A stretch of DNA of 64,000 nt from Pseudomonadota bacterium (GCA_021848625.1 JAJZUD010000001.1:3894-67893), one strand, 5' to 3'. Numbered from the stretch's first letter, positions 1-26,254 are shown. Numbers and translations are program-made. Notes: generated from the sequence alone by a model not told the origin.

Positions 1-681
1 ACCTTAAATATTGCAGCAAAAAAGTACGGGATTAAATATATTTTCGAGGGTCATTCTTTTAGGACTGAAGGGGTTGCGCCCCTTGGTTGGGCGTACATGG
101 ATGCTAAATACATTCAGAGCGTTTGTAAGCGTTTTGGTCATCGTATAAAATTTAAATCTCTCCCCATGATGTGGTTATCTTCTCAACTGAAGTGGATGTT
201 ATTTAATAGGTTAAAAAAAATTAGACCACTTTGGTATTTGGACTATCAAAAAGAGCCAACTAAAGAATTTTTGACAAAGCAATTTGGCTGGAAATGGTAT
301 GGAGGGCATCATTTAGAAAATCGCACTTGTACTTTCGGTCATACTTATCTTAATCCAAGGCGATTTGATGTGGATCAACGATCGAATGGGTTTTCAGCAG
401 AAGTACGCTCGGGCCAATTAGATAGAGAGTGGGCCATGGCTGAGTTAAGGAAAGCTCCGAAAGCCGAATATGAATCTGTGGATTATTTAAAAAAACGCTT
501 AGGAGTTGATGAAGAGACTTTTTTGGGATTTATGACCCAGTCTAGACGCACTGCTCAAGATTTCAAAACATATAAGCGGACTTTTGAAAGAATGCGTCCT
601 TTCTTTTATTTAATGGCTAAAATGGAGTTAATTCCTTGGACTTTTTATATGAAATATACGGCGAAAAGTGAGAAAAAATGA
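1..681 (+). CDS. N-acetyl sugar amidotransferase (WbpG/LfnA-like), C-terminal part; 5' end is outside the window
   Basis: Frame 1 is open from base 1 (TLNIAAKKYGIKYIFEGHSFRTEGVAPLGWAYMDAKY...), so track ORF 97..681 is only the tail. The pattern GWKWYGGHHLENRTCTFGHTYLNPRRF resembles the C-terminal half of PP-loop sugar amidotransferases found in O-antigen loci. ATGA overlap with the next gene at 678..681. Confidence 0.55.
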   Translation, partial: TLNIAAKKYGIKYIFEGHSFRTEGVAPLGWAYMDAKYIQSVCKRFGHRIKFKSLPMMWLSSQLKWMLFNRLKKIRPLWYLDYQKEPTKEFLTKQFGWKWYGGHHLENRTCTFGHTYLNPRRFDVDQRSNGFSAEVRSGQLDREWAMAELRKAPKAEYESVDYLKKRLGVDEETFLGFMTQSRRTAQDFKTYKRTFERMRPFFYLMAKMELIPWTFYMKYTAKSEKK

Positions 682-2305: not shown

Positions 2306-4951
2306 GTGTTAATGCTGAATAAGCAAGGTGATCAGGTTTTTTTAATTGATTCATTAACGGGCCAGGAATATTCTTATGAGGAATTTTATAATGAAGCCAT
2401 CAGTTTGGCCCATTGGCTTGTAAAGCAAGGGTTGAAGGCAGGTAATCGCCTTGCGATTACACTGGATAATTCCGTTTTTTTTGCGAAACTATACTTCGGT
2501 TGCTTATATGCGGGTGTGACAGTAGTGCCCGTAAACCCACAATGGTCAGAGTCTCATACACAATTTGTTTTGACGCATTCAAAAGCTTCTGCTTGGTTGA
2601 TGGACCAAGTACATGCCAAAGCTTATCACTCTTTAGAGCATGCGGTGAAACGTTTGGTTGTTACTTCAGATGTAATTGAAAAAGTAAAAGGGACTGTGCT
2701 TGACTCACCCAGTTTGGAAAATTTAGCGATCATTGTTTATACTTCTGGAACCACGGCAGATCCTAAAGGTGTAATGCATACAGTTGGGAGTTTAGTGAAT
2801 AATGCGCAACTCTTTATTAAAACATTGGGGATTGAAAAGGGACGGCGTTTCCTTAATTATTTACCTATGACTTATTTAGGGGGATACTACAATCTGTTGT
2901 TAATCCCTTATTTAGCAGAGGGCAGCGTGGTGATTGCGCCTGCATTCAATGCGCGTTCAATTCTACAGTTTTGGAAGCCCATTATTCAATATCAGGTTAA
3001 TGTCATTTGGTTTATTCCAACGATTATTTCCATGCTGATGAAATTGGATAAAAATTCAGAGGGTCTTGAATATTGCCATCAAACCAAAATTTTAGGATTG
3101 GTTGGAACGGCGCCACTTAGACCAGAATTAAAGACACAATTTCAGCAACATTATGGCATTGCATTATATGAAAATTATGGCTTGTCAGAGACTTTATTTT
3201 TAACTACTGAATCACCTCTGATTCCAGTTTCCCGCACGAGTGCTGGCTCTATTTTGCCGGGGATAGAATTAAAATTGATGGAACAAGGTGAGATAGGAGT
3301 GAAAACTCCTTACCTCATGCAGGGATATGTTGGCCTCAATGTAGAAGATTTTCTGCAGGGTCAATATTTCATGACGGGGGATGTCGGTGTGCTGACGGAC
3401 GCTGGAGAATTGCGGATTCAAGATCGTAAAAAAGATATGATTATTAAAGGGGGCGTCAATATTAGCCCTGCCAGTATTGAAGCTATAATTTCACAGGTTG
3501 AAGGGGTGGAGTTATGCGCGGTAGTGGGCGTTCAACACGATATTGCTGGTGAGGAAATTATTGGGGTGATTAAGCCACTTTTGGGTTTTGACTTTTCGGT
3601 GTTGAAGAGCAAAATTATCCAATATTGCAGAGAAAAACTAGATACAACGCAACAATTAGATTATTTGTTTGAATTAGAGAACTTTCCTTTTACGGCATCT
3701 GGGAAAATTCAAAAAAATAAAATTAGAGCTTGGGCAGTTGAGAAGCGTAATACAGCTAAGTCAAGTAAGGTCCACCCCTCCATCAAGCCCAATCATTTCT
3801 TTAAAGCCTCGCAAGTTGTTGCGAATATCGATCAGGCAATGTCTATCAAATACAATACCATGGTGTATGAGCGTCAGCAGCGCGGAGAAGAAACCATCGT
3901 CCTCTCGCTTGGCGAAGCTTTTTTTGATATCCCCCTTTTTGACTTTAATGCTTTGCCTATGCCCAAGCTTTACCACTATTGCCATTCTATGGGTATTCCA
4001 GAGTTGCGGCAATGTTTGGCAGATTATTTTCTTTCTGAGTATGATGTCAAGTTTAATCCTGAAACTGAAATTCTGGTAACAGCAGGTTCAAAAATTGCAA
4101 TTTATATGGCAATGCTCGCTATTCTGAATCCGGGCGATGAGGTCTTAATTTATGAGCCAGCCTGGGTAAGTTACACTGAGCAGGTGAAATTATGTTATGG
4201 GGTGCCGGTCGGGGTACCTTATCATGAAAGTGTTTATGATTTTGAGCGGTATATTACCAATCGTACTCGTTTGATTATTATTAACAATCCTAATAATCCC
4301 CGTGGTAGCGTGATGACTTTGGAGGAGCTGTCACATCTCTATCATTTGGCTGAAAAATATAATCTCTTCATTTTGTCTGATGAGGCATATAGTGATTTTG
4401 TACGGGATAAAAGTGAGTTTATTTCACTTGGTAATTTAGATCGGGAGAAAAAACATTCCATTATTGTGAATTCTATTTCCAAAAATTTTGGAATTTCAGG
4501 ATGGCGCATTGGTTACTTGATTGCTAATCCTGCACTGATTCAACAAATTTTAAAGCTGAATCAGCATATGATTACCTGCGCACCTACAGTCTTGTCACTT
4601 TATGTTGCGAAATACTTTTCAGAAATCCTTACGGTTACCAAGCCCCAAATGAAAGAGGTTGTGGAGCGACGTGAACGCTTGCGGCAATATATGGACAAAA
4701 TCGGTTTAAGCTATTTGCCTGGGACTGCGACGTTTTATTTCTTTGTTTCCTTGGGCGATTCGGAATTGGATTCTCAAAAATTTTGCGATCGGCTTCTCAA
4801 AGAAGAGGGTGTTTGTGTAGTACCTGGCGTAGGCTATGGGAAAAGCTGTGACCGTTTTGTAAGGGTTTCTATGTTTGCCGAGGCAGAGCAGCAAGTACAA
4901 AAGGGGCTCGATAAGTTAAAAAAATTAATTAATAAAACGAAGAGGGCTTAA
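2306..4951 (+). CDS. Fusion protein: adenylate-forming acyl/amino-acid ligase (N-terminal, about aa 1-475) plus class-I PLP aminotransferase (C-terminal, about aa 500-881)
   Basis: Ligase motifs: YTSGTTADPKGV, YENYGLSET, FMTGDVG, IQDRKKDMIIKGGVNISPASIE, ASGKIQK. Aminotransferase motifs: NNPNNPRG and SISKNFGISGWRIGY (PLP Lys about K726, codon 4481..4483). One uninterrupted 881-codon frame. GTG at 2306 or ATG at 2312. Confidence 0.75.
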   Translation: MLMLNKQGDQVFLIDSLTGQEYSYEEFYNEAISLAHWLVKQGLKAGNRLAITLDNSVFFAKLYFGCLYAGVTVVPVNPQWSESHTQFVLTHSKASAWLMDQVHAKAYHSLEHAVKRLVVTSDVIEKVKGTVLDSPSLENLAIIVYTSGTTADPKGVMHTVGSLVNNAQLFIKTLGIEKGRRFLNYLPMTYLGGYYNLLLIPYLAEGSVVIAPAFNARSILQFWKPIIQYQVNVIWFIPTIISMLMKLDKNSEGLEYCHQTKILGLVGTAPLRPELKTQFQQHYGIALYENYGLSETLFLTTESPLIPVSRTSAGSILPGIELKLMEQGEIGVKTPYLMQGYVGLNVEDFLQGQYFMTGDVGVLTDAGELRIQDRKKDMIIKGGVNISPASIEAIISQVEGVELCAVVGVQHDIAGEEIIGVIKPLLGFDFSVLKSKIIQYCREKLDTTQQLDYLFELENFPFTASGKIQKNKIRAWAVEKRNTAKSSKVHPSIKPNHFFKASQVVANIDQAMSIKYNTMVYERQQRGEETIVLSLGEAFFDIPLFDFNALPMPKLYHYCHSMGIPELRQCLADYFLSEYDVKFNPETEILVTAGSKIAIYMAMLAILNPGDEVLIYEPAWVSYTEQVKLCYGVPVGVPYHESVYDFERYITNRTRLIIINNPNNPRGSVMTLEELSHLYHLAEKYNLFILSDEAYSDFVRDKSEFISLGNLDREKKHSIIVNSISKNFGISGWRIGYLIANPALIQQILKLNQHMITCAPTVLSLYVAKYFSEILTVTKPQMKEVVERRERLRQYMDKIGLSYLPGTATFYFFVSLGDSELDSQKFCDRLLKEEGVCVVPGVGYGKSCDRFVRVSMFAEAEQQVQKGLDKLKKLINKTKRA

Positions 4952-5935: not shown

Positions 5936-6170
5936 TTTATTGGATATATTTAAAGTTTACGCAGTAATTGATGGAATATCTCAGGAATGCCTGTTGGATA
6001 TAGATTATTTGGATGCGAATTTAATGAGCTCAATTGCTTTCGTTTCTTTTGTTGCAGAACTTGAAGAGCGTTGCGGGCTCAATTTAGAGAGTGATATATT
6101 ACAAGATCTGAGATTCCGGAGCCTACGGGGTATTCAATCAATTATGCAAGAACAGGGCTTGGGTAAATGA
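5913..6170 (+). CDS. Acyl/peptidyl carrier protein-like
   Basis: 85 aa. MSSIAFVSFVAELEERCG aligns position-for-position with the ACP core DSLxxVELVxxLEEEFG, placing Ser40 (tca 6030..6032) at the phosphopantetheine site. Confidence 0.5.
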   Translation: MGFYKLDDLLDIFKVYAVIDGISQECLLDIDYLDANLMSSIAFVSFVAELEERCGLNLESDILQDLRFRSLRGIQSIMQEQGLGK

Positions 6171-7411
6171 GAGTTGCCTTAATTAACAATATGAATAACA
6201 ATTTTTTTTCCTTGGCGCGTTATTTACGCGACCGTGGAATCGATGCACACGTGTTTCAATTTGATAGCATTTATAATGGATTTTTGCCTGAAGCAGATAC
6301 CTTCGAAGATGTACAAGAAATTGACTATATCCATTTGATCTCTCAAATTACTTTTCGAGATTTTTTTAATCCCTTTTCTCGAAAAGTAAAGCGAGCGATA
6401 AAAAAATTAAAACAAGAATTAGTGGGTTTTGATGTCGTGATAGGATGTGGTGTCTTAGCTTTTTTTGAAAGGGCAGGCATGCAGCCGCTGGATGTGCTGA
6501 TTCCATACGGTGGGGATGTGTATCAATTAACTGATTTATTTAACTATTCAAGGAAGAAATACTTCCCTTATTCAATGTTAATGCGTTATATCATGAAGTA
6601 TCAGCGTGCTGCCATTCAAAAGGTGCGCTGCACAGTGTCATTCGCTAGCAACGATTTGCATATTGCAGATGCTCTAGCTAATATGGGGAAGCCTTGGATT
6701 GATTGGAATATTCCAATGATTTATCCCATTGCGTGTCCTTCTACTGAAACGCGTTGGGATTTTTTGAAAAATCACGATTTTGTATTATTTAGCCAGATTA
6801 GGCAAACTTGGAAAACAGGCACTGATTATAATGGGAACGACCGCGCCATCGAAGGGTATGCAAAATTTATTAAAGAGCATAATCGTTTCAAAAATCCAGT
6901 ATTTGTGCTATTTGAATATGGGTGTGATGTCAGTGCCTCTAAAGAATTAATTGCAACGCTGGGGATTGAATCTTACATCAAATGGGTGCCGAGTATGAAT
7001 CGTAAATATATTTACTCGGGATTAGATCACGCTGATCTTGTAACTGGTATTTTTAACCCTGAAGTCATTTCTTGTGGGGGAGTGACCTATGAGGCTTTTT
7101 CGCGTTCTGTTCCAGTCATTGGATGCGCAAAGATAGAACGCGGTGGTCGCCATGATCTTCCCCTGCTTCATGCGATGGAACCAGAGGAAATTTGTGCGAT
7201 TCTGACAGATTTTCAAGAGAATCCACTCAAGTATCAGAAGATTGGAAAAAAATCCAAAGCTTGGTTTGATAAAGAAGTGGGGGAGGGTTTAATTGATCGG
7301 TATGTTAAGTTGTTCAGAATATTGAGCGAGGATAAAATGGTAACATTGGATGATCCAAATGGCCCTCTTGCACATCTGAGCTATCAGAATTATGTTAAAA
7401 AACATCTTTAA
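6167..7411 (+). CDS. GT-B fold glycosyltransferase-like protein (putative)
   Basis: 414 aa soluble protein. The N-terminus MRVALINNMNNNFF and the C-terminal GGVTYEAFSRSVPVIG resemble the two Rossmann halves of GT1/GT4 enzymes. Weak assignment. Confidence 0.35.
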   Translation: MRVALINNMNNNFFSLARYLRDRGIDAHVFQFDSIYNGFLPEADTFEDVQEIDYIHLISQITFRDFFNPFSRKVKRAIKKLKQELVGFDVVIGCGVLAFFERAGMQPLDVLIPYGGDVYQLTDLFNYSRKKYFPYSMLMRYIMKYQRAAIQKVRCTVSFASNDLHIADALANMGKPWIDWNIPMIYPIACPSTETRWDFLKNHDFVLFSQIRQTWKTGTDYNGNDRAIEGYAKFIKEHNRFKNPVFVLFEYGCDVSASKELIATLGIESYIKWVPSMNRKYIYSGLDHADLVTGIFNPEVISCGGVTYEAFSRSVPVIGCAKIERGGRHDLPLLHAMEPEEICAILTDFQENPLKYQKIGKKSKAWFDKEVGEGLIDRYVKLFRILSEDKMVTLDDPNGPLAHLSYQNYVKKHL

Positions 7412-9638
7412 GGATAGCGCGATCTATGGTATTGGAACTTTTATTACGAGTTTCATTAATCTCTTGTTTTTGCCGCTTTTGACCCGTCTTCTTACTGTGA
7501 ATGAGTTTGGGGTGATTTCACTCGTTGCATCTTTGACAAGTATTGTTAATTACCTTGTAACGCTCAATATTACTCAATCAACATCACGCTTTGTTGTAAG
7601 AGCAGAAACGATAGAAGAAAAAAGGCTGTATGCCTCAAGTGGTTTTTGGTTTATTTGTCTAGCGTATCTTTTATGTCTTTTAATATTAAGTGGGGGTTTT
7701 CGATTTCTGAGTATTCCATTGGTCGGGGTAGATGATTTTATTTTGTACTTGACAGCGTTATTGTGTATTATTTTTTCTGGAATTTTTACTTATATGAATA
7801 GTCAGTTGCGTTGGCTTTTAAAGCCACATGCTTTTGTGAAGGCTTCAATTTTGATGGTCGTAAGCTCTGTCGTTTTTACTTATGTAAGTATTCGATTTTT
7901 ACAAATGGGTGCAATGGGGTATTTTTTAGGGCTGTGCTTGGGCTATGCTTTGGGAGGGCTATATGCCTATACGCATGTTTACACGCTTTTTTCTTTCCAA
8001 TTTTCGAGAGAGAAACTGAAGCAAATGTTAGTTTTTTCAACGCCTTTGGCTTTGTCGAGTGTCATGAGTTATTTCTATCTGGCGATTGATAAGTGGGCAA
8101 TTCGGATTTTGCTGAATTTTCATGATCTGGGAATTTATGGTGTGGCATCCCGTTTAGCGAGTATTGGTCCTGCTGCGATTGGGGTCTTGTCTTTGGGTTT
8201 GTTGCCGTATATTTATTCTTCTTATCAAAAGCCCGAATTTCCCAAAACTATTTCCTTTTTATTTAGATTAACTTTGTGGGCAGCATTCTCTGGAGCTCTG
8301 TTTTTTTTAGTATTTCAGCACGGCTTAATGTCACTGATTGCTGGAAAAAATTTCTTAGAGGCGGGGGCCTACGTCCCTTTATTATTTATGGGGGTGGTCT
8401 TGACCTCCTTTTATGATTTTACCCCCGGCGCTTGGATTTATGGCAAGACTATTCGCATTGCAGTTGTGAATGTGGTCACTGGGGTTGTGAATACGGCCTT
8501 AAATTTCTTATTGATTCCCCACTTTGGTTTGTGGGGGTCCGTGATCGCAATGCTGATTTCGGGGGGGATTGTTTTTGGTGGTAATGTGTTGATGAGTCAG
8601 TCTTTGTATAAAGTGCCGTATTCTTGGATACGTGTTTTTTTTGCCAGCTTGGTTTTTTGTGGATGCTATACCGTTCTCAATCAGGTAAAATTATCTTGTT
8701 TATCAAAGCTTTTCATTTCACTTTGTGCCATTGGGTTCATGGGAATGATTTTGTTGTTTTCAAAGGATCTATTAATGCGTTTATTAGAATATGCAAAGCG
8801 CACGGAGCAGCGCAAAGTGGCAAAAGAATCGTTAGGCTGGCTGCAAAAGGGAGCGGTTTTGGGCTTGCGCCTGGCTCGTAGCGTTGCCCACCCATTTAAG
8901 ATGAGGGCCCCTTTTCATCAAGTGGCAGCCTATTATTTATGCGAAAGTCTTGTCGTTAAACTGAATCCTTGTGCGAGTGACCATGCGCTGCCCTTACCTG
9001 ATGATTTGATAATCGCCCCAGGGTATTATGTCTATGAAGGCGCAACCTATGACATAAGGTGGTCTGGCGTTTACCGTTTTATGCAGTATGACCAAAAAAA
9101 TGAGCAAAGGGTAGTATATCAACTTGAAGCAGATATCTTGACTTTATTGGCCTCTTTGGCAGCACTGCATAATCATGGAAATGAAGATGATGGAAAAACC
9201 AATTTAAGATGTTATGAGTTGGCGAAGTCCAGAAAGCTTAATTTAAGCTGCCAGGATATGGCCGTTTTTAGCCATTTTATCTTGCAAAAATTAAAATTGG
9301 AATCGCGTGTTGTGGCGACAATGACCCTAGAAGAATTGAATGGCGATGATGGGCATTACATGATTGAAGTCTATTGCCCTATCAGAAAAAAATGGCTTTT
9401 GTGTGACCTTGATTTAGGGTTTTGTTTTAAAAAGCAGGATGAGTTTTTATCTTTGGATGAATTTCTACAGCATGTGTCTGCAGGGAACTATGATTTTTAT
9501 CCTTTGACCCAATACCCTGCTGTGGACATGGGAGGGTTCAGGGCGAAAAATGGCTATCGCTATGATTTTTTGGTGGAAGCCATGTTCGGAGATCTGAAAA
9601 CTTGGTATAAACGTGTGGCAGGTAAACGGCAAGTCTAG
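7392..9638 (+). CDS. Wzx-like MOP-family polysaccharide flippase with an extra C-terminal soluble domain of about 280 aa (transglutaminase-like Cys-His-Asp pattern)
   Basis: The first ~470 aa are consecutive hydrophobic helices typical of polysaccharide biosynthesis/flippase proteins (SAIYGIGTFITSFINLLFLPLLTRLL..). The tail contains LSCQDMAVFSHFIL..(x)..GHYMIEVYCPIRKKWLLCDLD. Confidence 0.65.
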   Translation: MLKNIFKDSAIYGIGTFITSFINLLFLPLLTRLLTVNEFGVISLVASLTSIVNYLVTLNITQSTSRFVVRAETIEEKRLYASSGFWFICLAYLLCLLILSGGFRFLSIPLVGVDDFILYLTALLCIIFSGIFTYMNSQLRWLLKPHAFVKASILMVVSSVVFTYVSIRFLQMGAMGYFLGLCLGYALGGLYAYTHVYTLFSFQFSREKLKQMLVFSTPLALSSVMSYFYLAIDKWAIRILLNFHDLGIYGVASRLASIGPAAIGVLSLGLLPYIYSSYQKPEFPKTISFLFRLTLWAAFSGALFFLVFQHGLMSLIAGKNFLEAGAYVPLLFMGVVLTSFYDFTPGAWIYGKTIRIAVVNVVTGVVNTALNFLLIPHFGLWGSVIAMLISGGIVFGGNVLMSQSLYKVPYSWIRVFFASLVFCGCYTVLNQVKLSCLSKLFISLCAIGFMGMILLFSKDLLMRLLEYAKRTEQRKVAKESLGWLQKGAVLGLRLARSVAHPFKMRAPFHQVAAYYLCESLVVKLNPCASDHALPLPDDLIIAPGYYVYEGATYDIRWSGVYRFMQYDQKNEQRVVYQLEADILTLLASLAALHNHGNEDDGKTNLRCYELAKSRKLNLSCQDMAVFSHFILQKLKLESRVVATMTLEELNGDDGHYMIEVYCPIRKKWLLCDLDLGFCFKKQDEFLSLDEFLQHVSAGNYDFYPLTQYPAVDMGGFRAKNGYRYDFLVEAMFGDLKTWYKRVAGKRQV

Positions 9639-11464
9639 GAGAAATGACGTTCATGCCACATTTGAAACATGAGCAAAACCCAAATATCTTGGTGGTCTGT
9701 AAGTTTGCCAGAAAAAAGATTATGCTTAAGTTGGTTAACATACTGTGAATTTAAAATTCCGCTTTTTTTGAGCCTCACATCATCCAAATACTCATTGACT
9801 AACGGTTTTAGATCACTTTGGAGCCATTGATTAAGGGGGAGGCCAAAGCCTTGTTTTTTGCGTTCAAAAAAAGCGGGTGGAAGGTAGCCTGCAAGAATTT
9901 TTTTGAGAATCTTTTTCTGCTGTTTATAAACCAGAGGCAGGGTTGCAGCATATTCAATGATTTTATGGTCTAGTAATGGCTCACGGCCTTCTAGGCCAAT
10001 AAACAGAGTAGCGCGATCCACCTTGTGAAGAATATCTTCGGGAAGATAAGTTTCAAAGTCAGCAAGCATCATGGTTTCTGCCATGCTTGAGCCCTGTGGC
10101 ACAGCATCACAAAAAATATGCTGCCCAATCAGTTTCTTGACCTCTGTGGGAGTCAGAACAGATGAAGCTGTACGGTAAAGTAAGCTGTCGTCCATCAGTG
10201 GCAGAAGTGCTTGGAGCCGAAGAGATTTTTTGCTGAGCATTGTATTTGGAATAAGTTGAGACAGCCATAACATTGCATGCCGCGCAGGCAATTTTTTTAG
10301 CTTTTGAAATAGGGAGGGGAAACGTGCATAAACTGAATAACCACCAAAAAGCTCATCCCCACCATCCCCAGATAGGGCTACTTTAACAGTTTGTTTTGCA
10401 AGTTTTGCGACAAGGTGTGTGGGGATGGCAGAGGAATCACCAAAGGGCTCATCATACATTTCCGGTAATTGAGGAATAATATCCAGTGCATCTTGTTTGC
10501 TGCAGTAATGTTCCGTATGCACGGTTCCTAAATAGTGTGCTATTTTCTTTGCATGCTCAGCTTCATTGTATTGTTGCTCTTCAAAGCCAATGGTGAAGGT
10601 ATGCAAAGGCGTGGAAGAGTGTTTTTGCAAAATAGCTGTGACGAGGCTGCTATCAATGCCGCCACTCAAAAAGCAGCCGACGGGAACATCTGCAACCATG
10701 CGGAGTTGAAAAGATTCTTGCAGAATGGTTTCGAGTTGTGCAGTTGCTTCTTCCTCGGAGAGATTGGCAGCAGCTTGCACTGTACGGACTGACCAGTATT
10801 GTTTTTCAGTAAAGCTTTGGTCCTTGAGATCTAAGATAACAAAGTGCCCAGGCTTTAGCTTAAAGGTATTTTCAAAAATAGAATGTGGAGCAGAAATATA
10901 ACCCCATTGCATGTAATGTGAGAGGCCTGTTTGGTTGAGGCGCTTTTGAAAACAAGGATGCTGCATCAAAGGGCTCAGTGTACTACCAAAAATAAGGAGG
11001 TCATGTTGGTGGTAATAATAAAGGGGTTTTACGCCTGCGCGATCTCGAAAGAGGTAAATTTTCTGGGCATTACTGTCGTAGAGGCAAAAAGCAAACATGC
11101 CGCGAAATTGTTGCACGGCATCCACTCCCCAGCAATGAAATGCTTTAATGATCACTTCGGTGTCAGAATGAGATTGAAAAGTATAACCTTTTTGCGTAAG
11201 TTGTTTTTGAATTTCCTCAAAATTATAGACTTCTCCATTATAGGTGAGAGATAAGCCTTCAAAATGGTAGGGTTGGTGCCCTGCTTCGGATAAATCAAGA
11301 ATGGAGAGCCGGCTATGACCCAAGCCAATTTGAGCGAAATGGGTGTCCAATAAAGCGTAGCCTTGGTCATCTGGCCCACGACGCTGTATCGTTTGAACCA
11401 TTTTATTAAGCATCTCTGGTGTGCTCTTTTTTTTAAAATCAATAAAACCCGTTATTCCGCACAT
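9635..11464 (-). CDS. asnB: Asparagine synthase (glutamine-hydrolysing) family amidotransferase
   Basis: N-terminal nucleophile MCGITGF, then SGGIDSS PP-loop motif; 609 aa. Stop overlaps the flippase stop region (convergent). Confidence 0.85.
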   Translation of the reverse strand: MCGITGFIDFKKKSTPEMLNKMVQTIQRRGPDDQGYALLDTHFAQIGLGHSRLSILDLSEAGHQPYHFEGLSLTYNGEVYNFEEIQKQLTQKGYTFQSHSDTEVIIKAFHCWGVDAVQQFRGMFAFCLYDSNAQKIYLFRDRAGVKPLYYYHQHDLLIFGSTLSPLMQHPCFQKRLNQTGLSHYMQWGYISAPHSIFENTFKLKPGHFVILDLKDQSFTEKQYWSVRTVQAAANLSEEEATAQLETILQESFQLRMVADVPVGCFLSGGIDSSLVTAILQKHSSTPLHTFTIGFEEQQYNEAEHAKKIAHYLGTVHTEHYCSKQDALDIIPQLPEMYDEPFGDSSAIPTHLVAKLAKQTVKVALSGDGGDELFGGYSVYARFPSLFQKLKKLPARHAMLWLSQLIPNTMLSKKSLRLQALLPLMDDSLLYRTASSVLTPTEVKKLIGQHIFCDAVPQGSSMAETMMLADFETYLPEDILHKVDRATLFIGLEGREPLLDHKIIEYAATLPLVYKQQKKILKKILAGYLPPAFFERKKQGFGLPLNQWLQSDLKPLVNEYLDDVRLKKSGILNSQYVNQLKHNLFSGKLTDHQDIWVLLMFQMWHERHFS

Positions 11465-11476
11465 TGTTGCCTTCCC

Positions 11477-13297
11477 CTAATTATGTTGCAGCCAAATTTC
11501 AGTCGCGAGAAGAGACCAAAGCATCTTAGCGCGTTTCTCATCAGAGATAGGGACTTTTCTTTGGAGCAGGTTTTGGATAAAGGAAGGAGCAACATAGTCA
11601 CTGACCTTGGGCGTGCCTTCTAAATAAGCATGCATTTTCGTTTTGAGCTCGTGATTGAGCCAGGATTTAAGGGGGATTTCAAATCCCCGCTTGGGTTGAT
11701 TGATCAATTCAAGAGGGAGGTATTGTTTAGCCAGTTGGCGCAGAATAAATTTGGTCGCCGTGCCCTTTATTTTATAGTGATCTGGAAGTTGGGCTGAGAG
11801 CCTTAGCATATCTCGGGAGAGAAAAGGGCTGCGAGCTTCCAATGCATGAGCCATGGTTGCAATATCCATTTTAACAAGTAAGTCGCCAAAAAGCAGAAGA
11901 TTAAAGTCAAGGTAGAGCATTTTATCCAAGGCCGACAAATGGGGATCCCCTTGGACTTGATGGATAAAACCATCCAACTGATCATCAATAGCATTGAGCG
12001 GGAAAGTGTAGCTATCGTTAAAAGCATCCACCGTAGCTGAAGTGTAAAAATCTAAGCCTTGCTTACTGGACATAGCGAGCAGGCGATAAAAATAATTGTA
12101 TTTGCTCTTTTTATGGTGAGGTTTAGGCAAAATAGCGGTGAGGAAGGCGAAGGTTCGTGCCCACTCTATCCATCTTTTGGTCAAGGGCACATAACGTCGA
12201 TAGCCTGCAAAAAGCTCATCAGCGCCATCGCCATTTAAGACCACAGTGACGTGTTTTTTAGCTTCTTTCGCAACATAATAGCTTGGGATAGCGCTAGAGT
12301 CTAAAAAAGGTTCGCCATAGTTGAGTAAGATTTTTTCTAAGTCTTGCTCCACATCCATGGCAATTTCTATTTCAGTATGTTCTGTTCTATAGCGTGCAGC
12401 AGTAAGCTTGGCAAGGGAAGTTTCATCATATTCACCTGGAAATTTGACTGTAAATGTTTTTAATCGAGATTGCTCCTGAGCGGCAAGTGCCACAATCAGG
12501 TTGCTATCAATCCCACCTGATAAAAATGCACCGACTTCTAACTCACTGCTCATGAGTCTATTCTTTACGGCAGTTTGAAGAGTCTGATCTGTCAAGGCCA
12601 TGGCATCGGGAAGAGACAGCTCAAGTTTGGGCTGATGATAAACCTCCAAAAGATCAAAATAGGACTTTTTTTGAAGGGCAAGACTTGTTAGATCAAGGCT
12701 GAGATAATGGCCCGCATTCAGTTCATAGACTTCATGATAGGGGGTGTGTTCTTTAAAGAAAAAGCCACAGCGGAGGAGACTCTTGATCGCTTCGTGATGG
12801 AGGGTCAAGGGGAGAATCGCTTTTAAGGCATTGAGCTCACTTGCAAAGGCAAAGCGGTCATTTTTTTTATAATAGTAAAGAGGTTTTTTACCAGCTCGGT
12901 CGCGAGCTAAAAATAGGGAGTTTTTGTTTCTATCCAAAATGGCGAAAGCAAACATCCCATCTAGGTATTGAAAGAGGTCTTTGTCAAATTGAATGTACAT
13001 CGCTAACAGGGTTTCAGTATCGCTTGAGGTTTGAAAAGGAAAATCACGCAAATACTCCTTCCGCAAGGCGAGGTGATTGTAGATTTGTCCGTTTAAGATA
13101 ATAGTGTAATGTTGGTAATGCAGGGGTTGATGGCCATGCTGAATGTCTTGAATGGCTAGGCGAGTATGAACTAAGCTCAGTGCGTCATGACTATAATGGC
13201 TTTGTTTGTCTGGGCCGCGATGATGTAAGGCTTGTAGCAGTTTTTCAATGGCTAAGTTTCGATCTTGTAAATTAATAAATCCTGCAATGCCACACAT
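11477..13297 (-). CDS. asnB: Asparagine synthase (glutamine-hydrolysing) family amidotransferase, second copy
   Basis: MCGIAGF nucleophile, SGGIDSN PP-loop; 606 aa. Lies 12 nt upstream of the first copy on the same strand. Confidence 0.85.
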   Translation of the reverse strand: MCGIAGFINLQDRNLAIEKLLQALHHRGPDKQSHYSHDALSLVHTRLAIQDIQHGHQPLHYQHYTIILNGQIYNHLALRKEYLRDFPFQTSSDTETLLAMYIQFDKDLFQYLDGMFAFAILDRNKNSLFLARDRAGKKPLYYYKKNDRFAFASELNALKAILPLTLHHEAIKSLLRCGFFFKEHTPYHEVYELNAGHYLSLDLTSLALQKKSYFDLLEVYHQPKLELSLPDAMALTDQTLQTAVKNRLMSSELEVGAFLSGGIDSNLIVALAAQEQSRLKTFTVKFPGEYDETSLAKLTAARYRTEHTEIEIAMDVEQDLEKILLNYGEPFLDSSAIPSYYVAKEAKKHVTVVLNGDGADELFAGYRRYVPLTKRWIEWARTFAFLTAILPKPHHKKSKYNYFYRLLAMSSKQGLDFYTSATVDAFNDSYTFPLNAIDDQLDGFIHQVQGDPHLSALDKMLYLDFNLLLFGDLLVKMDIATMAHALEARSPFLSRDMLRLSAQLPDHYKIKGTATKFILRQLAKQYLPLELINQPKRGFEIPLKSWLNHELKTKMHAYLEGTPKVSDYVAPSFIQNLLQRKVPISDEKRAKMLWSLLATEIWLQHN

Positions 13298-13440
13298 AAT
13301 TTTGGTTTTTTCCTGTGGGAAAGAGGGGATTATAATCGCTGTTTTCTTCGATTGCTAGTAGGCAAATGCTCTGATCGCTATCTCTCAAAGGTTTTGATAA
13401 AGTAGAGCCAGTTAATAGTTATGATGGATTCTGTTGTTTC

Positions 13441-14679
13441 ATGTTAATGATCTGCATATTAAGTTTGGCGGCGCTCTGTTTGGGGTTAGCAATCTTACGG
13501 GGATTTACGCCTTTTTATAAAAGAATTTTTCCTGCTGTGATCGTTTGTTGGTTAGGCCATATTTTGGGAACTTTTGCCTATAGTTTGGTCGGTTCAGATT
13601 CGCATTCCTATTATTTTCCATTGGCCACGCCTGGAATCAATCAAACGTTTAAGTCTCCTTTTGGCAGCGGATTTATTTTGAATGTGGTCTGGTATGTGCG
13701 CTTATTTTTAACGGGAGATTCTTTTTTAGCGACTTTGTTCTTTTTCGGCATGTTAGGGTTTTTGGGCAGCATTTTATGGTATTGCCTGTACCTTAAAATA
13801 GCAGATGAGTTAAATATGACTCGGGCTCGCATTTTGGCTGTGCCGGCTTGGGTGATATTGTGTTGGCCTTCCATTTTGTTTTTTACAGCTGGCATGAAGG
13901 ATGCTTGGCCTTTTTTATTTTTGCCTTTATTTTTTATTTGTTTATTTTCGCTAAAGACTTCCACATCTAAGCTATTTTCCTTAGGTTTATTGGTGCTTGT
14001 CGGCTTGATGATATTAATGCCTCGGCCCTACTTGATTTTGATCATTGTGTTTGCATGGTATTTGACTTTTTTAGCGCAAGGAAAAAATCCCCGCACTTAT
14101 TGGGTGAAAATTGGGTTGTCCTTCTTATTTGTATTTATTTTTATTAGCCTGGCACAACACATTGTGAGTATTACAGTAGGAGGAAATATTGATAGGCGTT
14201 TGGGGCATGCTTCCAACTTTGGACAGGTTGCTTCTCAGGCTGTGTTACAGCAGCAGTATTTAAGTGTCGGAACTTCTTTCCCGATGTCCACTAACCCAGC
14301 GTTATTACCTTTGCTATTGCCCTATAGCTTTTTAATGAATTTATGCTTTCCCTTATTTATTTTTTCTAACAATTTACAAAGTGTCTTGCAATCATTTGAA
14401 AATCTTTTCCTCATTTATTTACTTTTCTTTTCATGGAAAAAAAGAAAGATATTTGCAGCGCGTGCAAAGAACAACAGTGCGGTGCGGTTAATGTTTTTTT
14501 ATTTTGTGGTGGGGATGAGCTTTCTCGCATTGATTAACACAAACTTGGGATTATCAACTCGTGAAAAAGCCATGTATTTGCCGGCATTTTTGATTGTTTT
14601 TAGCCTGGCGTATGGATTATATTGCCAGGAAAAGATAGAATATTTACGAAAAAAAGAGGGAAAACGATGCGTAAAATAG
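13441..14679 (+). CDS. Polytopic membrane protein, candidate O-antigen polymerase (Wzy-like)
   Basis: 412 aa, about 10 or more hydrophobic segments, no recognisable catalytic motif. The call rests on position in the glycan locus and the lack of any other polymerase candidate. Confidence 0.3.
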   Translation: MLMICILSLAALCLGLAILRGFTPFYKRIFPAVIVCWLGHILGTFAYSLVGSDSHSYYFPLATPGINQTFKSPFGSGFILNVVWYVRLFLTGDSFLATLFFFGMLGFLGSILWYCLYLKIADELNMTRARILAVPAWVILCWPSILFFTAGMKDAWPFLFLPLFFICLFSLKTSTSKLFSLGLLVLVGLMILMPRPYLILIIVFAWYLTFLAQGKNPRTYWVKIGLSFLFVFIFISLAQHIVSITVGGNIDRRLGHASNFGQVASQAVLQQQYLSVGTSFPMSTNPALLPLLLPYSFLMNLCFPLFIFSNNLQSVLQSFENLFLIYLLFFSWKKRKIFAARAKNNSAVRLMFFYFVVGMSFLALINTNLGLSTREKAMYLPAFLIVFSLAYGLYCQEKIEYLRKKEGKRCVK

Positions 14680-15947
14680 CAGTGATAGGCTTAGGCTATG
14701 TCGGATTGCCTATGGCCGCGGCTTTTGCTAAAGGACAGGAGATCATTGCTTTTGATATTAATGCAAAGCGGATTGAAGAATTAAAGCAAGGGGTAGATCA
14801 TACAGGAGAGGTGAGTACTGCAGATCTAAAAGCGGGTCGGTTTTTGTTTACTAGCTACAGAGATGACTTAAAGCGAGCTGATTTTTTTATTGTGGCCGTT
14901 CCCACGCCAATTGATCAGGCTAATCAACCCGATCTAGGTCCCATACTCAGTGCATCAAAAACAATTGCCCCTGTTTTAAAAAAAGGCGATATTGTGGTGT
15001 ACGAATCTACTGTTTATCCCGGAACGACAGAAGAAGAATGTGTACCTGTATTGGAGCAATATTCAGGTTTAAAATGCGGAGTTGATTTTTTTGTGGGCTA
15101 CTCCCCCGAGCGGATAAACCCGGGTGATAAGGAGCATAGTTTTACCAAAATTAGGAAAATTGTTTCAGGGCAAACTCCCGAAGTACTCGAGATAGTTGCA
15201 GAGGTTTATTCCAGCGTAGTTGAAGCCGGTGTATATAAAGCTTCAAGTATCAAAGTGGCTGAGGCCGCTAAGGTCATTGAAAACACGCAACGCGACTTGA
15301 ATATCGCCTTTGTGAATGAGCTCGCCATGATTTTTCATAAATTGGGGATTGATACCAAAGAAGTTTTGGATGCAGCGGGTACAAAGTGGAACTTTCTTGG
15401 ATTTAGGCCGGGATTGGTTGGGGGGCATTGCATTGGTGTTGACCCTTATTATCTCACGCACAAAGCAGAGTCAATCGGGTTTCATCCGCAGGTGATTTTA
15501 GCCGGGCGGCGTGTAAATGATGGCATGGGTGCTTATATTGCGCGTGAAACAATCAAATTGCTATCGCAAGCAGGGATTTGTTTAAAAGAAGCAAAAGTGG
15601 GGGTTTTGGGCTTTACCTTCAAAGAAAACTGTCCGGATATTCGAAACACTAAAGTCATCGATATTATTGCAGAATTAAAAGACTATGGGGTACAGGTGAT
15701 AGTGCATGATCCGCTTGCCGATCCAGAGGACCTTATGCAAGAATACGCTCTTGGTCTTACCCCGCTTGATCAATTCAAAAACTTAGAGGTATTGATCTTG
15801 GCGGTTGCACATCAGGAATATCTTGCTGTTTCGATTGAGGATTGGGTGCGGCGCTTCGGGGGAAATAGTCAGATTGTGATTGATGTGAAGAGTGTTTTAG
15901 ATCCAGTGCAACTTGCAGCAAGGCAAGTGACCTGCTGGCGATTATAG
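14667..15947 (+). CDS. UDP-N-acetyl-hexosamine 6-dehydrogenase (TviB/WbpO/CapL family)
   Basis: MRKIAVIGLGYVGLP Rossmann start preceded by aagaggga; catalytic Cys in GGHCIGVDPYY. The track ORF begins at 14622, but ATG 14667 fits the family N-terminus. Confidence 0.85.
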   Translation: MRKIAVIGLGYVGLPMAAAFAKGQEIIAFDINAKRIEELKQGVDHTGEVSTADLKAGRFLFTSYRDDLKRADFFIVAVPTPIDQANQPDLGPILSASKTIAPVLKKGDIVVYESTVYPGTTEEECVPVLEQYSGLKCGVDFFVGYSPERINPGDKEHSFTKIRKIVSGQTPEVLEIVAEVYSSVVEAGVYKASSIKVAEAAKVIENTQRDLNIAFVNELAMIFHKLGIDTKEVLDAAGTKWNFLGFRPGLVGGHCIGVDPYYLTHKAESIGFHPQVILAGRRVNDGMGAYIARETIKLLSQAGICLKEAKVGVLGFTFKENCPDIRNTKVIDIIAELKDYGVQVIVHDPLADPEDLMQEYALGLTPLDQFKNLEVLILAVAHQEYLAVSIEDWVRRFGGNSQIVIDVKSVLDPVQLAARQVTCWRL

Positions 15948-15956
15948 GAGAAAAGA

Positions 15957-17198
15957 GTGCAAGGCGTTTATCGTTGTCGGTTTTGTGAAAAGATACTCAA
16001 TCATACTTTTGCTGATTTGGGAACCTCCCCTTTGTCAAATGCCTATCTCACGGAAGCAGATTTATCTCAAGGCGAGATTTTTTATCCTCTTAAGGCAGAA
16101 GTATGCAGTTCATGCTTATTGGTACAGCTGCCAAAATTTGTGGCCCCTGAGTCTATTTTTAGTGATTACCTTTATTTTTCATCCTATTCGGATAGTTGGC
16201 TTGCGCATTCAAAGCGGTATGTAGAAATGATGCTGGCACGTTTTAAACTCAAGTCGAGCCATACTGTGATTGAGATTGCTAGCAATGATGGATACCTACT
16301 CCAGTATTTTAAAGCCGCAGGTATTCCTGTTTTAGGGGTTGAGCCCGCAACCAATGTGGCGGCTGTAGCTGTAAAAGAGAAGGGTATTCCTACACGTAAT
16401 GTTTTCTTTGGGGTGGAAACGGCCAAGGAAATGCATGCTGAAGGAATTCGCGCAGATGTTTTGCTTGCAAACAATGTCCTTGCACATGTGCCTGATCTAA
16501 ATGATTTTGTGGGTGGGATGAAGATTATCCTTGCCGAGCAAGGGGTTTTGACGATTGAATTTCCCCATTTATTAAAGCTCATGAATGAAAATCAATTTGA
16601 TACCATTTATCACGAGCATTTCTCTTATTTTTCACTCTATACTTTGTGCAAAGTATTCGCGCATCATGGCTTGACTATTTTTGATGTTGAAGAAATTCCG
16701 GTACATGGGGGTTCTTTGCGTATTTTTGTCAAACATCAGCAGGATCAAGCTAAGCCTGTTATGGATCGGGTTCAAGATATCCTTGCAAAAGAAAAGGCTG
16801 AAGGGTTGCAGGATGTGCAGACTTATAATGAGTTTTCAAAAAAGACTCAAAAGATTAAATATGATCTATTGCAATTCTTATTAAAAGCCAAGCAAGAGGG
16901 TAAAATGGTTGCGGGTTACGGCGCACCTGCGAAAGGCAATACCTTATTGAATTACTGTGGCCTGCATGGAGATTTGCTTGCATTTACGGTGGACCGCAGT
17001 CCGCATAAACAAAACCATTATTTGCCAGGCAGCCGCATTCCTATTTTTCATCCTGATCATATCAAAAAAGCAAAGCCAGATTATGTCCTGATTTTGCCTT
17101 GGAACTTAAAGGATGAAATTGTAGAGCAAATGGCGTATATCAAAGAATGGGGCGGGCAATTTTTGGTGGCTGTTCCCTCGGTACAAGTTGTCCAATAA
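15957..17198 (+). CDS. NDP-hexose C-methyltransferase (SAM-dependent, Zn-ribbon N-terminus)
   Basis: CRFCEKIL..(x)..CSSC zinc-ribbon, a class-I methyltransferase core (VIEIASNDGYLL) and a C-terminal domain with AGYGAPAKGNTLLNY, typical of sugar 3-C-methyltransferases (TylC3-like). Confidence 0.7.
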   Translation: MQGVYRCRFCEKILNHTFADLGTSPLSNAYLTEADLSQGEIFYPLKAEVCSSCLLVQLPKFVAPESIFSDYLYFSSYSDSWLAHSKRYVEMMLARFKLKSSHTVIEIASNDGYLLQYFKAAGIPVLGVEPATNVAAVAVKEKGIPTRNVFFGVETAKEMHAEGIRADVLLANNVLAHVPDLNDFVGGMKIILAEQGVLTIEFPHLLKLMNENQFDTIYHEHFSYFSLYTLCKVFAHHGLTIFDVEEIPVHGGSLRIFVKHQQDQAKPVMDRVQDILAKEKAEGLQDVQTYNEFSKKTQKIKYDLLQFLLKAKQEGKMVAGYGAPAKGNTLLNYCGLHGDLLAFTVDRSPHKQNHYLPGSRIPIFHPDHIKKAKPDYVLILPWNLKDEIVEQMAYIKEWGGQFLVAVPSVQVVQ

Positions 17199-17199
17199 A

Positions 17200-17739
17200 A
17201 TGCAATTTGAGGAGGCAGAACTCAAAGGGGTGTTTGTGATCACTTTGAATCCTCTTCGCGATGAGCGAGGATTTTTTGCACGCAGCTTTTGTCAAAAAGA
17301 GTTTGCGCAACATGGTTTGAATCCGCACATCAGCCAATGTAATGTTTCCTATAATAAAAAAAAAGGGACTTTGCGAGGCATGCATTATCAAGTTGCACCT
17401 CATGCTGAGACCAAAGTGGTATACTGTCGCAAAGGTGCCGTGTGGGATGTGGTGGTGGATGTACGTGTTAAATCGCCTACTTTTGGCCAGTGGCAAGGGT
17501 TTGAGTTGAGTGAAACAAATCAATGCGCTTTATATATTCCCGAGGGCTTTGCCCATGGGTTTCAAGCTTTGCGGGACGATACTGAGCTTTTTTATTTAAT
17601 GGGATCAGATTATCATCCCGCCTCTGCCAGAGGGTTGTTTGCGCAGGATCCAGAGCTTAATATCATATGGCCTATTCAGCCAATAATAAGTTCTCCCAAA
17701 GACCTAGCCTTGCCTGGTTTAAAGGATATCCAACCATGA
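17200..17739 (+). CDS. NDP-4-keto-6-deoxyhexose 3,5-epimerase (RfbC/RmlC cupin family)
   Basis: GVFVITLNPLRDERGFFARSF, GTLRGMHYQ, KVVYCRKGAVWDVVVDVR..SPTFGQW. ATG 17200 lies 2 nt after the preceding stop. Confidence 0.8.
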   Translation: MQFEEAELKGVFVITLNPLRDERGFFARSFCQKEFAQHGLNPHISQCNVSYNKKKGTLRGMHYQVAPHAETKVVYCRKGAVWDVVVDVRVKSPTFGQWQGFELSETNQCALYIPEGFAHGFQALRDDTELFYLMGSDYHPASARGLFAQDPELNIIWPIQPIISSPKDLALPGLKDIQP

Positions 17740-26216: not shown

Positions 26217-26254
26217 GTTTATAATGCCTAGAGTTTTAATGAAAAGAGTGAGCG

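Follow-up and report, generated by a model that had tools for sequence, protein, structure and literature searches.

Decoration of envelope glycopolymers in a carrier-protein-dependent manner is known from bacteria. D-Alanylation of teichoic acids by DltA and DltC, and transfer of glycine to lipid A by AlmE, AlmF, and AlmG in Vibrio cholerae, use an adenylating enzyme of the adenylate-forming ANL superfamily, a small carrier protein, and a transferase for the envelope glycopolymer. The O-antigen gene cluster rfbK-O of V. cholerae O1 possesses its own acyl carrier protein (ACP), an AMP-ligase-like protein, and a hexapeptide acyltransferase for the N-acylation of perosamine with tetronate; this acyl group is a hydroxy acid, and the system includes dehydrogenase and LuxC-like parts and neither an aminotransferase nor a NicX-fold protein. 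A gene in a 64,000-nucleotide stretch of DNA from a Pseudomonadota bacterium (GCA_021848625.1, JAJZUD010000001.1:3894-67893; the whole stretch is the "window" below) combines an ANL domain with a class-I aminotransferase (AT) domain in one polypeptide. Judging from sequence, structure prediction, and gene context, this ANL-AT fusion probably provides the acyl group with which an amino sugar in a surface polysaccharide is N-acylated by way of a carrier protein.

Serotype, recognition by phages and antibodies, and flagellar function are all influenced by unusual N-acyl groups that are carried by O-antigen sugars and by pseudaminic and legionaminic acids. They include amino-acyl, glyceroyl, glutamyl, and oxoprolyl groups. 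In Campylobacter jejuni, the aminopeptidase-fold protein Cj1295 is needed for the di-O-methylglyceroyl group at N5 of pseudaminic acid, the locus contains an AAC(3)-like N-acetyltransferase, and a role of Cj1295 as a de-N-acetylase was hypothesized (PMC3068675). Flagellin glycosylation islands of Aeromonas group II carry genes for an ACP and an AMP-dependent synthetase (PMC7874193). The genes described here, for the ANL-AT fusion, a carrier, a NicX-fold protein, an N-acyltransferase, and a deacetylase, would form a compact set for one such route, which ranges from Gammaproteobacteria to bacteria of the candidate phyla radiation (CPR) and marine ammonia-oxidizing archaea.

The fusion gene and its two domains

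On the + strand, an open reading frame (ORF) at positions 2306..4951 begins with a GTG and runs uninterrupted for 881 codons, the length given in a sequence-only reading of this region. An ATG at position 2312 is preceded by GGAG a few bases upstream and leads to an 879-amino-acid (aa) product, identical (100%) to the database protein P0001. For both reasons this ATG is the likelier start, so that 881 aa describes the maximal ORF and 879 aa the likely product; residues are numbered accordingly. Pfam identified the domains AMP-binding at aa 5-341 (E = 1e-62), AMP-binding_C at aa 391-467 (9e-09), and Aminotran_1_2 at aa 554-867 (8e-65). The AlphaFold2 (AF2) model displayed two well-folded domains joined by a 24-residue segment of low confidence (Table 1), and this linker differs in length and sequence among the homologues in an alignment of 27 sequences, in which residue invariance was also judged. 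Substrate channelling between the domains, as proposed earlier, was not supported: disorder is predicted for the linker, and an interface between the domains was not established.

That a single uninterrupted ORF joins an ANL enzyme to a class-I aminotransferase was borne out by the Pfam domains and the intact catalytic residues, and the motifs quoted in the sequence-only reading (YTSGTTADPKGV, YGLSET, TGD, DRKKDMIIKGG, SGKIQK, NPNNPRG, and SISKNFGISGWRIGY) were all found. No stop or frameshift occurs at the junction, positions 3720..3800, where three other assemblies are identical. Contigs of ENA ERZ27237461, NCBI GCA_027358265.1, and Logan SRR13221995 agree with the window from position 2952 (or 3179) to 7935 with 100% identity and without gaps, and these three assemblies may come from overlapping read sets. 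Overall GC content and GC content by codon position are equal in both halves of the gene. At the 90% identity level, homologues from more than 115 protein clusters align with 99-100% of the fusion, at 44-57% identity and with the same three Pfam domains, and a scan of species-representative genomes revealed the single-ORF fusion in 22 of them. The fusion gene is real. Its origin from two adjacent genes joined during assembly or sequencing has a vanishingly small probability, given these homologues, the identical assemblies, and the uniform composition.

The full-length architecture occurs in about ten bacterial phyla and in marine Thaumarchaeota. Carriers of the fusion were Gamma- and Alphaproteobacteria, Lentisphaerae/Victivallales, Verrucomicrobiota, Elusimicrobia, Parcubacteria, Thermodesulfobacteriota, Myxococcaceae, Bacteroidota, and the thaumarchaeon Nitrosopelagicus. 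The fused homologues, where named at all, bear generic automatic labels such as "aminotransferase class I/II-fold PLP-dependent enzyme" (PLP, pyridoxal phosphate). The architecture had been regarded as non-standard, which holds in that it matched no characterized enzyme that was found; rare it is not. In the literature searched, neither the fusion nor a carrier-protein-dependent acylation of nonulosonic acids was found to be characterized.

The ANL domain scored 212 bits with PF00501 (cut-off, 29.9) and 36.6 bits with PF13193 (cut-off, 24.5). All core motifs are present: A3 [(T/S)SG(T/S)TxxPKG], A5 (YGxxE), A7 (TGD), the A8 hinge (RxKD), and the A10 lysine, which is K465 within SGKIQK. Invariant residues are G146, T147, T148, P151, and K152; T355, G356, and D357; R372, K374, and D375; and K465 and K468. 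By family and motifs, the domain belongs to the ANL superfamily, and adenylation is the predicted activity. Its nearest entries in the PDB were FadD13, the feruloyl-, malonyl-, and oxalyl-CoA synthetases, and MenE (1e-34 to 1e-38). The best PDB and NCBIfam matches were acyl-CoA ligases (9e-38), compared to 1e-21 for gramicidin synthase, and DltA was absent from the PDB and NCBIfam matches listed. Inspection of the A4 region, "LPMTYLGGYYNL," revealed no Asp. From these matches, the domain is assigned to the acyl-CoA-synthetase type and not to the amino-acid-adenylating type of nonribosomal peptide synthetases (NRPS) and DltA.

The AT domain scored 219.8 bits with PF00155. It was closest to the aspartate/aromatic aminotransferases (AspAT/AroAT) of Pyrococcus (PDB 1gd9/1dju, 2e-61), followed by the AspATs of Thermotoga and Thermus (7e-47). 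The PLP lysine K724, N662, D690, Y693, the alpha-carboxylate arginine R851, and K594 are invariant, and the catalytic positions line up with those of 1gd9/1bkg. Fold and residues place the domain in the class-I aminotransferases (fold type I, AspAT-like subgroup). The invariant K594, located in "AGSK," aligns with the lysine of "GGK" in Thermus AspAT, which we take to be K109 in pig numbering and to recognize the distal carboxylate of acidic substrates; work by Nobe in 1998 and by Ura in 2001 reportedly describes K109 as the determinant of AspAT for acidic substrates. Because the AT domain reached 269.6 bits with the housekeeping AspAT equivalog NF041091, which has a cut-off of 550 bits, it is predicted not to be a housekeeping AspAT.

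The class-I AT fold also includes C-S lyases, 1-aminocyclopropane-1-carboxylate synthase, and similar enzymes, and the NCBIfam model for GntC scored 235 bits compared to 270 bits for archaeal AspAT, both below the cut-off. The PLP domain may catalyze a GntC-like cyclodehydration, a beta- or gamma-elimination, or a decarboxylation of an acyl precursor instead of a transamination, with the ANL domain activating the product. This is improbable, however, since the closest structures are those of bona fide AspAT/AroAT enzymes and the full set of AspAT residues, including the distal lysine, is invariant.

Partner genes in related loci

The fusion gene was compared across 76 non-redundant loci, 29 of ANL type (window included) and 47 "AT-only" loci. 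Genes were counted by direct blastp; single-linkage clustering merges the ANL, AT, NicX, left-handed-beta-helix (LbH), and ATP-grasp families by way of natural fusions. Throughout the 76 loci, the ANL, NicX-like, and carrier genes co-occur, and these three as well as an AAC(3)-like gene were found in 0 of the 47 AT-only loci. In each of the 29 ANL-type loci, the NicX-like gene either directly neighbors the ANL gene or fusion or lies no farther than about 1 kb away. In the window it begins at the base directly after the stop codon of the fusion gene.

The small ORF further downstream was recognized with a family hidden Markov model (HMM) built from nine such ORFs, which share the motif NY.D....DS..F[VI]..[IV].E[LI]E..F. 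The best PDB match of this nine-member profile was DltC (6bug, 1e-09), followed by peptidyl and acyl carrier proteins, and the invariant S40 aligns with the phosphopantetheine serine of DltC. On account of the profile match and the aligned serine, the ORF is assigned as a dedicated carrier protein, with predicted phosphopantetheinylation. The HMM matched every locus with ANL and NicX genes that had sufficient room on the contig and none of the AT-only loci.

The AF2 model of the NicX-like protein had a pLDDT of 95, and a Foldseek search retrieved NicX (7cn3; E = 2e-27, TM 0.84) and the M29 peptidases PepS, AmpT, and AmpS (TM 0.65-0.74). Its score with PF02073 was 33.2 bits (cut-off, 27), with an alignment restricted to the C-terminal half, and its 327 aa compare to about 400 aa in M29 proteins. 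The Fe(II) ligands of NicX are reportedly His265, Ser302, His318, and Asp320 (7CN3). In the partner protein, Glu257 stands in the place of His265 and Gly in that of Ser302, with an invariant His283 nearby, and His318 and Asp320 are kept as H301 and D303. Invariant in the family are E257, H283, H301, D303, H67, H95, D114, E188, and E195. With two of the four ligand positions changed, the partner is not regarded as a genuine NicX dioxygenase; by alignment, the ligand set looks neither clearly NicX-like nor clearly M29-like. The family comprises 457 homologues, all without a name or named automatically.

The block composed of the NodB-like, LpxD-like, ANL-AT, NicX-like, and carrier genes plus a gene for a 414-aa protein is kept at 44-68% identity in two other gammaproteobacterial metagenome-assembled genomes (MAGs), in both preceded by HisH, HisF, and WbuX. 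An Elusimicrobia genome keeps the ANL-AT fusion, the NicX-like gene, and the small ORF alone, with NeuB, AAC(3)-like, and Cj1295-like neighbors. An AAC(3)-like N-acyltransferase occurs in 18 of the 29 ANL loci, in most cases as a neighbor of the carrier gene and in some as a fusion with an aminopeptidase-fold domain of the Cj1295 type, and an LpxD-like acyltransferase in 7 of the 29; nearly all ANL loci possess one or the other of these amino-sugar N-acyltransferases. One such fusion (L003, positions 15173-17089), an AAC(3)-like protein joined to DUF4910/DUF2172 (Cj1295-like, M28 aminopeptidase fold), lies two genes past the carrier gene with a methyltransferase between them, and looks like a combined enzyme that removes the old acyl group and adds a new one. 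A NeuB-type nonulosonic-acid synthase is encoded in 17 of the 29 loci, and an S-adenosylmethionine (SAM) methyltransferase of about 390 aa between NicX and the carrier in 11.

The AT of the AT-only loci is 47-63% identical to the fused domain. An ATP-grasp enzyme of the L-amino-acid-ligase type is encoded in 32 of these 47 loci and adjoins the AT gene in about half of the 32 (gap of 30 nt or less, or overlap). In L036 (positions 9082-11430), the two are a 783-aa fusion of an AT orthologue (aa 6-382) with the ATP-grasp ligase (aa 390-782). An Amidohydro_2 protein (PF04909) occurs in 21-27 of the 47, for instance in L039 at 7260-8093 and in L042 at 8537-9304, and a methyltransferase of about 229 aa in 19. 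Neither the ATP-grasp ligase nor Amidohydro_2 was present in any of the 29 ANL-type loci (0/29 each). The distribution of Amidohydro_2 mirrors that of the NicX-fold protein, and both may be functional analogues. Because the AT is fused to or located beside either an ANL enzyme or an ATP-grasp ligase, the AT family, as gene arrangement tells, is wired to two interchangeable carboxylate-activating devices. This comparison supports the functional tie between activation and transamination that had been proposed for the fusion, and the ATP-grasp version provides a natural "control" of the pathway.

Other arrangements were also observed. A deltaproteobacterial MAG (L021, positions 9911-13615) encodes a triple fusion of ANL, AT, and NicX-like domains (P0116, 1224 aa). 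Split genes in the order AT-NicX-ANL are found in L051, L054, L070, and L076. In a split sub-clade (L066, L070, L073, L075, L076, L077, and L079), the ANL domain is joined at its C terminus not to the AT but to an RraA-like aldolase/decarboxylase (PF03737, down to 1e-41), and the NicX gene remains directly upstream of the ANL gene. The fused form was seen in the four members scanned with Pfam, L066 (9953-12259), L070 (12130-14394), L073 (261-2558), and L079 (9953-12184); in L076, the RraA-like protein is encoded by an adjoining ORF.

These loci also bear on the possibility that the fusion is a housekeeping acyl-CoA synthetase joined to a housekeeping aspartate aminotransferase, located in a polysaccharide locus by chance. 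The automatic labels, which read aminotransferase or acyl-CoA synthetase, would agree with it. Both domains nevertheless stay far below the equivalog cut-offs for AspAT and for acyl-CoA ligases, and the context of NicX-like, carrier, and glycan genes is invariant across phyla, making such a coincidence very unlikely.

Table 1. Features of the window and of the fusion gene, with positions counted from the first letter of the window
Feature	Position	Strand	Remarks
WbuX-like N-acetyl-sugar amidotransferase, 3' part	1..681	+	TIGR03573 3e-17; cut by window edge
NodB-family polysaccharide deacetylase-like, 238 aa	678..1394	+	PF01522 6.5e-06; candidate de-N-acetylase
LpxD-like left-handed-beta-helix N-acyltransferase, 309 aa	1372..2301	+	candidate carrier-to-amino-sugar acyl transferase
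ANL-aminotransferase fusion gene	2312..4951	+	879 aa plus stop; maximal ORF from GTG 2306
ANL (adenylate-forming) domain, aa 1-481	2312..3754	+	PF00501 1e-62, PF13193, invariant motifs
A3 motif YTSGTTADPKGV of ANL domain	2738-2773	+	
Inter-domain linker, aa 482-505, Ser/Lys/Pro-rich	3755..3826	+	pLDDT <50, variable alignment columns
Class-I (AspAT-like) aminotransferase domain, aa 506-879	3827..4948	+	PF00155 8e-65
PLP lysine K724 of AT domain	4481-4483	+	
NicX/M29-fold metalloenzyme, 327 aa	4952..5935	+	PF02073 3e-08, PDB 7cn3 8e-09
DltC-like carrier protein, 85 aa	5913..6170	+	predicted phosphopantetheine serine S40 at 6030-6032
414-aa protein, after carrier gene	6167..7411	+	faint GT-B/GT4 signal (PF13439 E 0.027)
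Wzx-type flippase, 748 aa	7392-9638	+	
Two tandem AsnB-type glutamine amidotransferases	9635-13297	-	opposite strand inside cluster
Sugar C-methyltransferase (PF08421/PF08484), RmlC-like 3,5-epimerase, SDR epimerase/reductase, in a row	15957-18599	+	
PglD/NeuD-like acetyltransferase, PseC/PglE-like sugar aminotransferase, PglF-like membrane 4,6-dehydratase	25587-29262	+	
L-2-hydroxyglutarate oxidase equivalog	29237-30460	-	336 bits, cut-off 299; convergent with last gene of cluster

In the window, the polysaccharide cluster extends from position 1 to about 29,260 (Table 1); the remainder contains gammaproteobacterial housekeeping genes such as those for RpoD, PurB, SspA, TsaD, MurJ, and NuoF. 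Around the fusion gene, neighboring genes touch one another or share a few bases, and this arrangement points to a single operon with translational coupling. Orthologues of the NodB-like protein with 56-61% identity are present in L001, L002, and L025, and the LpxD-like gene is kept upstream of the fusion in L001, L002, L006, L017, L025, and L028; its match to the LpxD model covers the LbH and the C-terminal regions. The cluster is without NeuB and has the LpxD-like and NodB-like genes instead. The WbuX-like gene, an orthologue of which (402 aa) follows HisH/HisF in L001 and L002, is probably part of a separate acetamidino module. The 414-aa protein is 50-64% identical in L001 and L002 and occurs in six loci, all of the window type. 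NCBIfam gave no equivalog-level name for this protein, the ATP-grasp ligase, Amidohydro_2, the methyltransferases, or the Cj1295-like protein.

The cluster also encodes a UDP-sugar dehydrogenase, glycosyltransferases, phosphoglycosyl transferases, a PIG-L deacetylase, and TviC-like proteins. The AsnB-type pair probably represents enzymes of uronic-acid amidation of the WbpS type, and the genes at 15957-18599, with a member of the short-chain dehydrogenase/reductase (SDR) type, suggest that the polysaccharide of this cluster contains a branched-chain 6-deoxy sugar. The Wzx flippase contains an extra domain in its C-terminal 260 aa or so (aa 492-742), the homologue of which is encoded by a gene of its own (336 aa) where locus L002 begins. 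A protein of about 410 aa encoded at 13441-14679 on the + strand had no significant family match.

A proposed route to an N-acylated amino sugar

The following route builds on observations, namely the identities of the domains, their intact catalytic residues, a fusion that is real, the co-occurrence of the genes, and the alternative fusions; from these we infer each chemical step, the order of the first three steps, the acyl group, and the acceptor sugar. First, the AspAT-like domain would use glutamate to aminate a 2-oxo acid, yielding a non-standard alpha-amino acid. Second, the ANL domain would adenylate a carboxylate of this amino acid and pass it on to the phosphopantetheine thiol of the carrier encoded two genes downstream. 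Third, the NicX/M29-fold enzyme may alter the same acyl unit by hydrolysis, cyclization, or oxygenation. Fourth, a de-N-acetylase, NodB-like here and Cj1295-like elsewhere, would free the amine of an amino sugar that is linked to a nucleotide or a lipid. Fifth, the N-acyltransferase, LpxD-like in the window and AAC(3)-like elsewhere, would move the acyl group from the carrier to this amine and form an amide.

A candidate for the acceptor in the window is a 2,4-diamino-2,4,6-trideoxyhexose of the PglF/E/D type, the pathway to which would be encoded at 25587-29262, or a diamino uronic acid. For most of the relatives, a nonulosonic acid is the probable acceptor. RraA-like aldolases make and cleave acids of the 4-hydroxy-2-oxoglutarate type. 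The flagellin of Clostridium botulinum carries legionaminic acid with an N-methyl-glutam-4-yl group at N5 (PMC5207245), and in the literature on this sugar, Leg5GluNMe7Ac, the structure was confirmed and no gene assignment was found. The distal-carboxylate lysine of the AT domain, the dicarboxylate-type relatives of the ANL domain, the RraA fusions, and this legionaminic glycan are the reasons why a dicarboxylic amino acid of the glutamate family is the leading guess for the acyl group, and as such a tentative one. The L-2-hydroxyglutarate oxidase encoded next to the cluster yields 2-oxoglutarate, so that a link to a glutamate-family acyl group is possible; its location may also be a coincidence.

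Transamination may alternatively follow activation. The ANL domain would first load a 2-oxo-dicarboxylic acid by its distal carboxylate, for example, 2-oxoglutarate or its 4-hydroxy derivative, and the fused AT domain would then aminate the group tethered to the carrier or the sugar, in which case docking of both domains to one carrier would be the reason for the fusion. The order of the domains, ANL followed by AT with a flexible tether between them, is consistent with this sequence of events. An AT domain that keeps Arg851 for the alpha-carboxylate and Lys594 at the distal side would fit an acyl chain with a thioester at the far end; the ANL domain has, by inspection of "LPMTYLGGYYNL," no acidic residue where NRPS and DltA bind the alpha-amine; and the fusions with RraA-like aldolases point to 2-oxo-diacids as substrates. 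Stand-alone AT proteins beside an ATP-grasp ligase in loci without a carrier favor a free substrate, however, unless the group is already attached to the sugar when the AT acts, and to our knowledge no class-I AT acts on a carrier-tethered substrate. This order of events is therefore unlikely, albeit worth considering.

A further scheme with an ANL enzyme, a carrier, and a transaminase is that of the tambjamines, in which the ANL domain loads an acid onto a carrier, reduction of the thioester gives an aldehyde, and the AT turns this aldehyde into an amine; TamA (ANL-ACP) and TamH (transaminase-thioester reductase) are the precedent (PMC9594044). A reductase domain was found neither in the fusion nor among the conserved neighbors, and the AT, with its arginine for the alpha-carboxylate, is an alpha-amino-acid enzyme of class I instead of a class-III omega-transaminase, so that an acid-to-amine conversion has hardly any probability here. 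An AspAT-like AT together with an ATP-grasp ligase also brought phosphonoalanine into consideration (PMC11867202), and this idea was dropped when no gene resembling that of phosphoenolpyruvate mutase was present in the loci examined.

Several observations weigh against N-acylation from a carrier loaded by the ANL-AT fusion, or against parts of this route. The carrier as a single sequence stays below the Pfam threshold (PF00550, E = 0.011; DltC model, E = 0.06), and the LpxD-like protein is under the NCBIfam cut-offs (NF002060, 194.2 versus 207 bits; TIGR01853, 189.5 versus 242.5 bits). The ANL domain also resembles fatty-acyl and feruloyl ligases, which weakens the idea of a dicarboxylate, and plain Glu or Asp would not obviously need a dedicated AT. 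The scheme leaves the role of the NicX-fold protein unexplained and does not accommodate the SAM methyltransferases and WbuX/HisH/HisF, which often co-occur. The ATP-grasp ligase of the AT-only loci could join an amino acid to the carboxylate of a uronic acid, which is the opposite polarity and would therefore weaken the analogy between ANL and ATP-grasp enzymes. All listed fused homologues come from metagenome-assembled or otherwise uncultured genomes, with no glycan structure to match, and no cultured organism with both a solved glycan and an ANL-AT fusion was present in the sets searched.

If the carrier-dependent route is combined with amination of a tethered group, a speculative picture emerges, which we regard as less probable than that order of events alone. 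The trio of the ANL-AT fusion, the NicX-fold protein, and the DltC-like carrier would be an unrecognized assembly line of bacteria, CPR bacteria, and Thaumarchaeota, which builds branched or hydroxylated glutamate-family acyl groups on the carrier, destined for nonulosonic acids and diamino sugars. The substrate of the AT would be a tethered 2-oxoacyl thioester; the NicX-fold protein would be a cyclase or oxygenase and not a peptidase. Examples of the products would be substituents of the gamma-glutamyl, N-methyl-glutamyl, and 5-oxoprolyl types, for which we know of no described biosynthesis.

Comparison with known systems

Apart from carrier-dependent decoration as such, which Dlt and AlmEFG represent, the ANL-AT fusion, the NicX-fold protein that always accompanies it, the combination with N-acyltransferases of the LpxD-like or AAC(3)-like kind, and the parallel version with an ATP-grasp ligase are new; no paper on them was found. 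The locus would give the ANL superfamily a new partner architecture and the NicX/M29 fold a new biological role. NicX and the M29 aminopeptidases AmpS, AmpT, and PepS have the same fold as the partner protein, which keeps the His-x-Asp pair of their metal site; they act in pyridine catabolism or peptide trimming, whereas the partner resides in a glycan-acylation context. The AT domain has the fold and the full catalytic residue set in common with the AspATs of Thermus thermophilus and Pyrococcus horikoshii (subgroup I-gamma). Unlike these, it forms a conserved family of its own across phyla, tied to glycan loci.

TamA/TamH and MycA-type modules likewise bring an ANL enzyme, a carrier, and a PLP-dependent transaminase to one acyl unit (PMC9594044). 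They differ in that a class-III transaminase acts on aldehydes or beta-keto thioesters, in the presence of a reductase or ketosynthase domain, in other fusion partners, and in serving natural-product pathways. In the nonulosonic-acid loci of Campylobacter and Aeromonas, neither an ANL-AT fusion nor a NicX/M29-fold gene has been described; homologues of C. jejuni Cj1295 and Cj1296/7 flank the core of ANL-AT, NicX-like, and carrier genes in 18 of the 29 loci.

Compared to Dlt and Alm, the ANL domain here is, by its matches, of the acyl-CoA-synthetase type, fused to an AT, and accompanied by the NicX/M29-fold protein. The transferases of those systems are an MBOAT protein (DltB) and an LpxL-type protein (AlmG), and neither type is represented in the gene annotations of the window cluster and loci L001-L004; soluble LpxD-like or AAC(3)-like N-acyltransferases are found instead. 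Dlt and Alm form an ester, whereas an amide on an amino sugar would be expected here. The proposed route follows the same logic of deacetylation and re-acylation as LpxC and LpxD in lipid A synthesis, with an acyl-carrier donor and an LbH N-acyltransferase. It would differ from them by a NodB-like deacetylase, by a dedicated DltC-like carrier in place of AcpP, and by an acyl group that comes from the ANL-AT fusion and not from fatty-acid synthesis.

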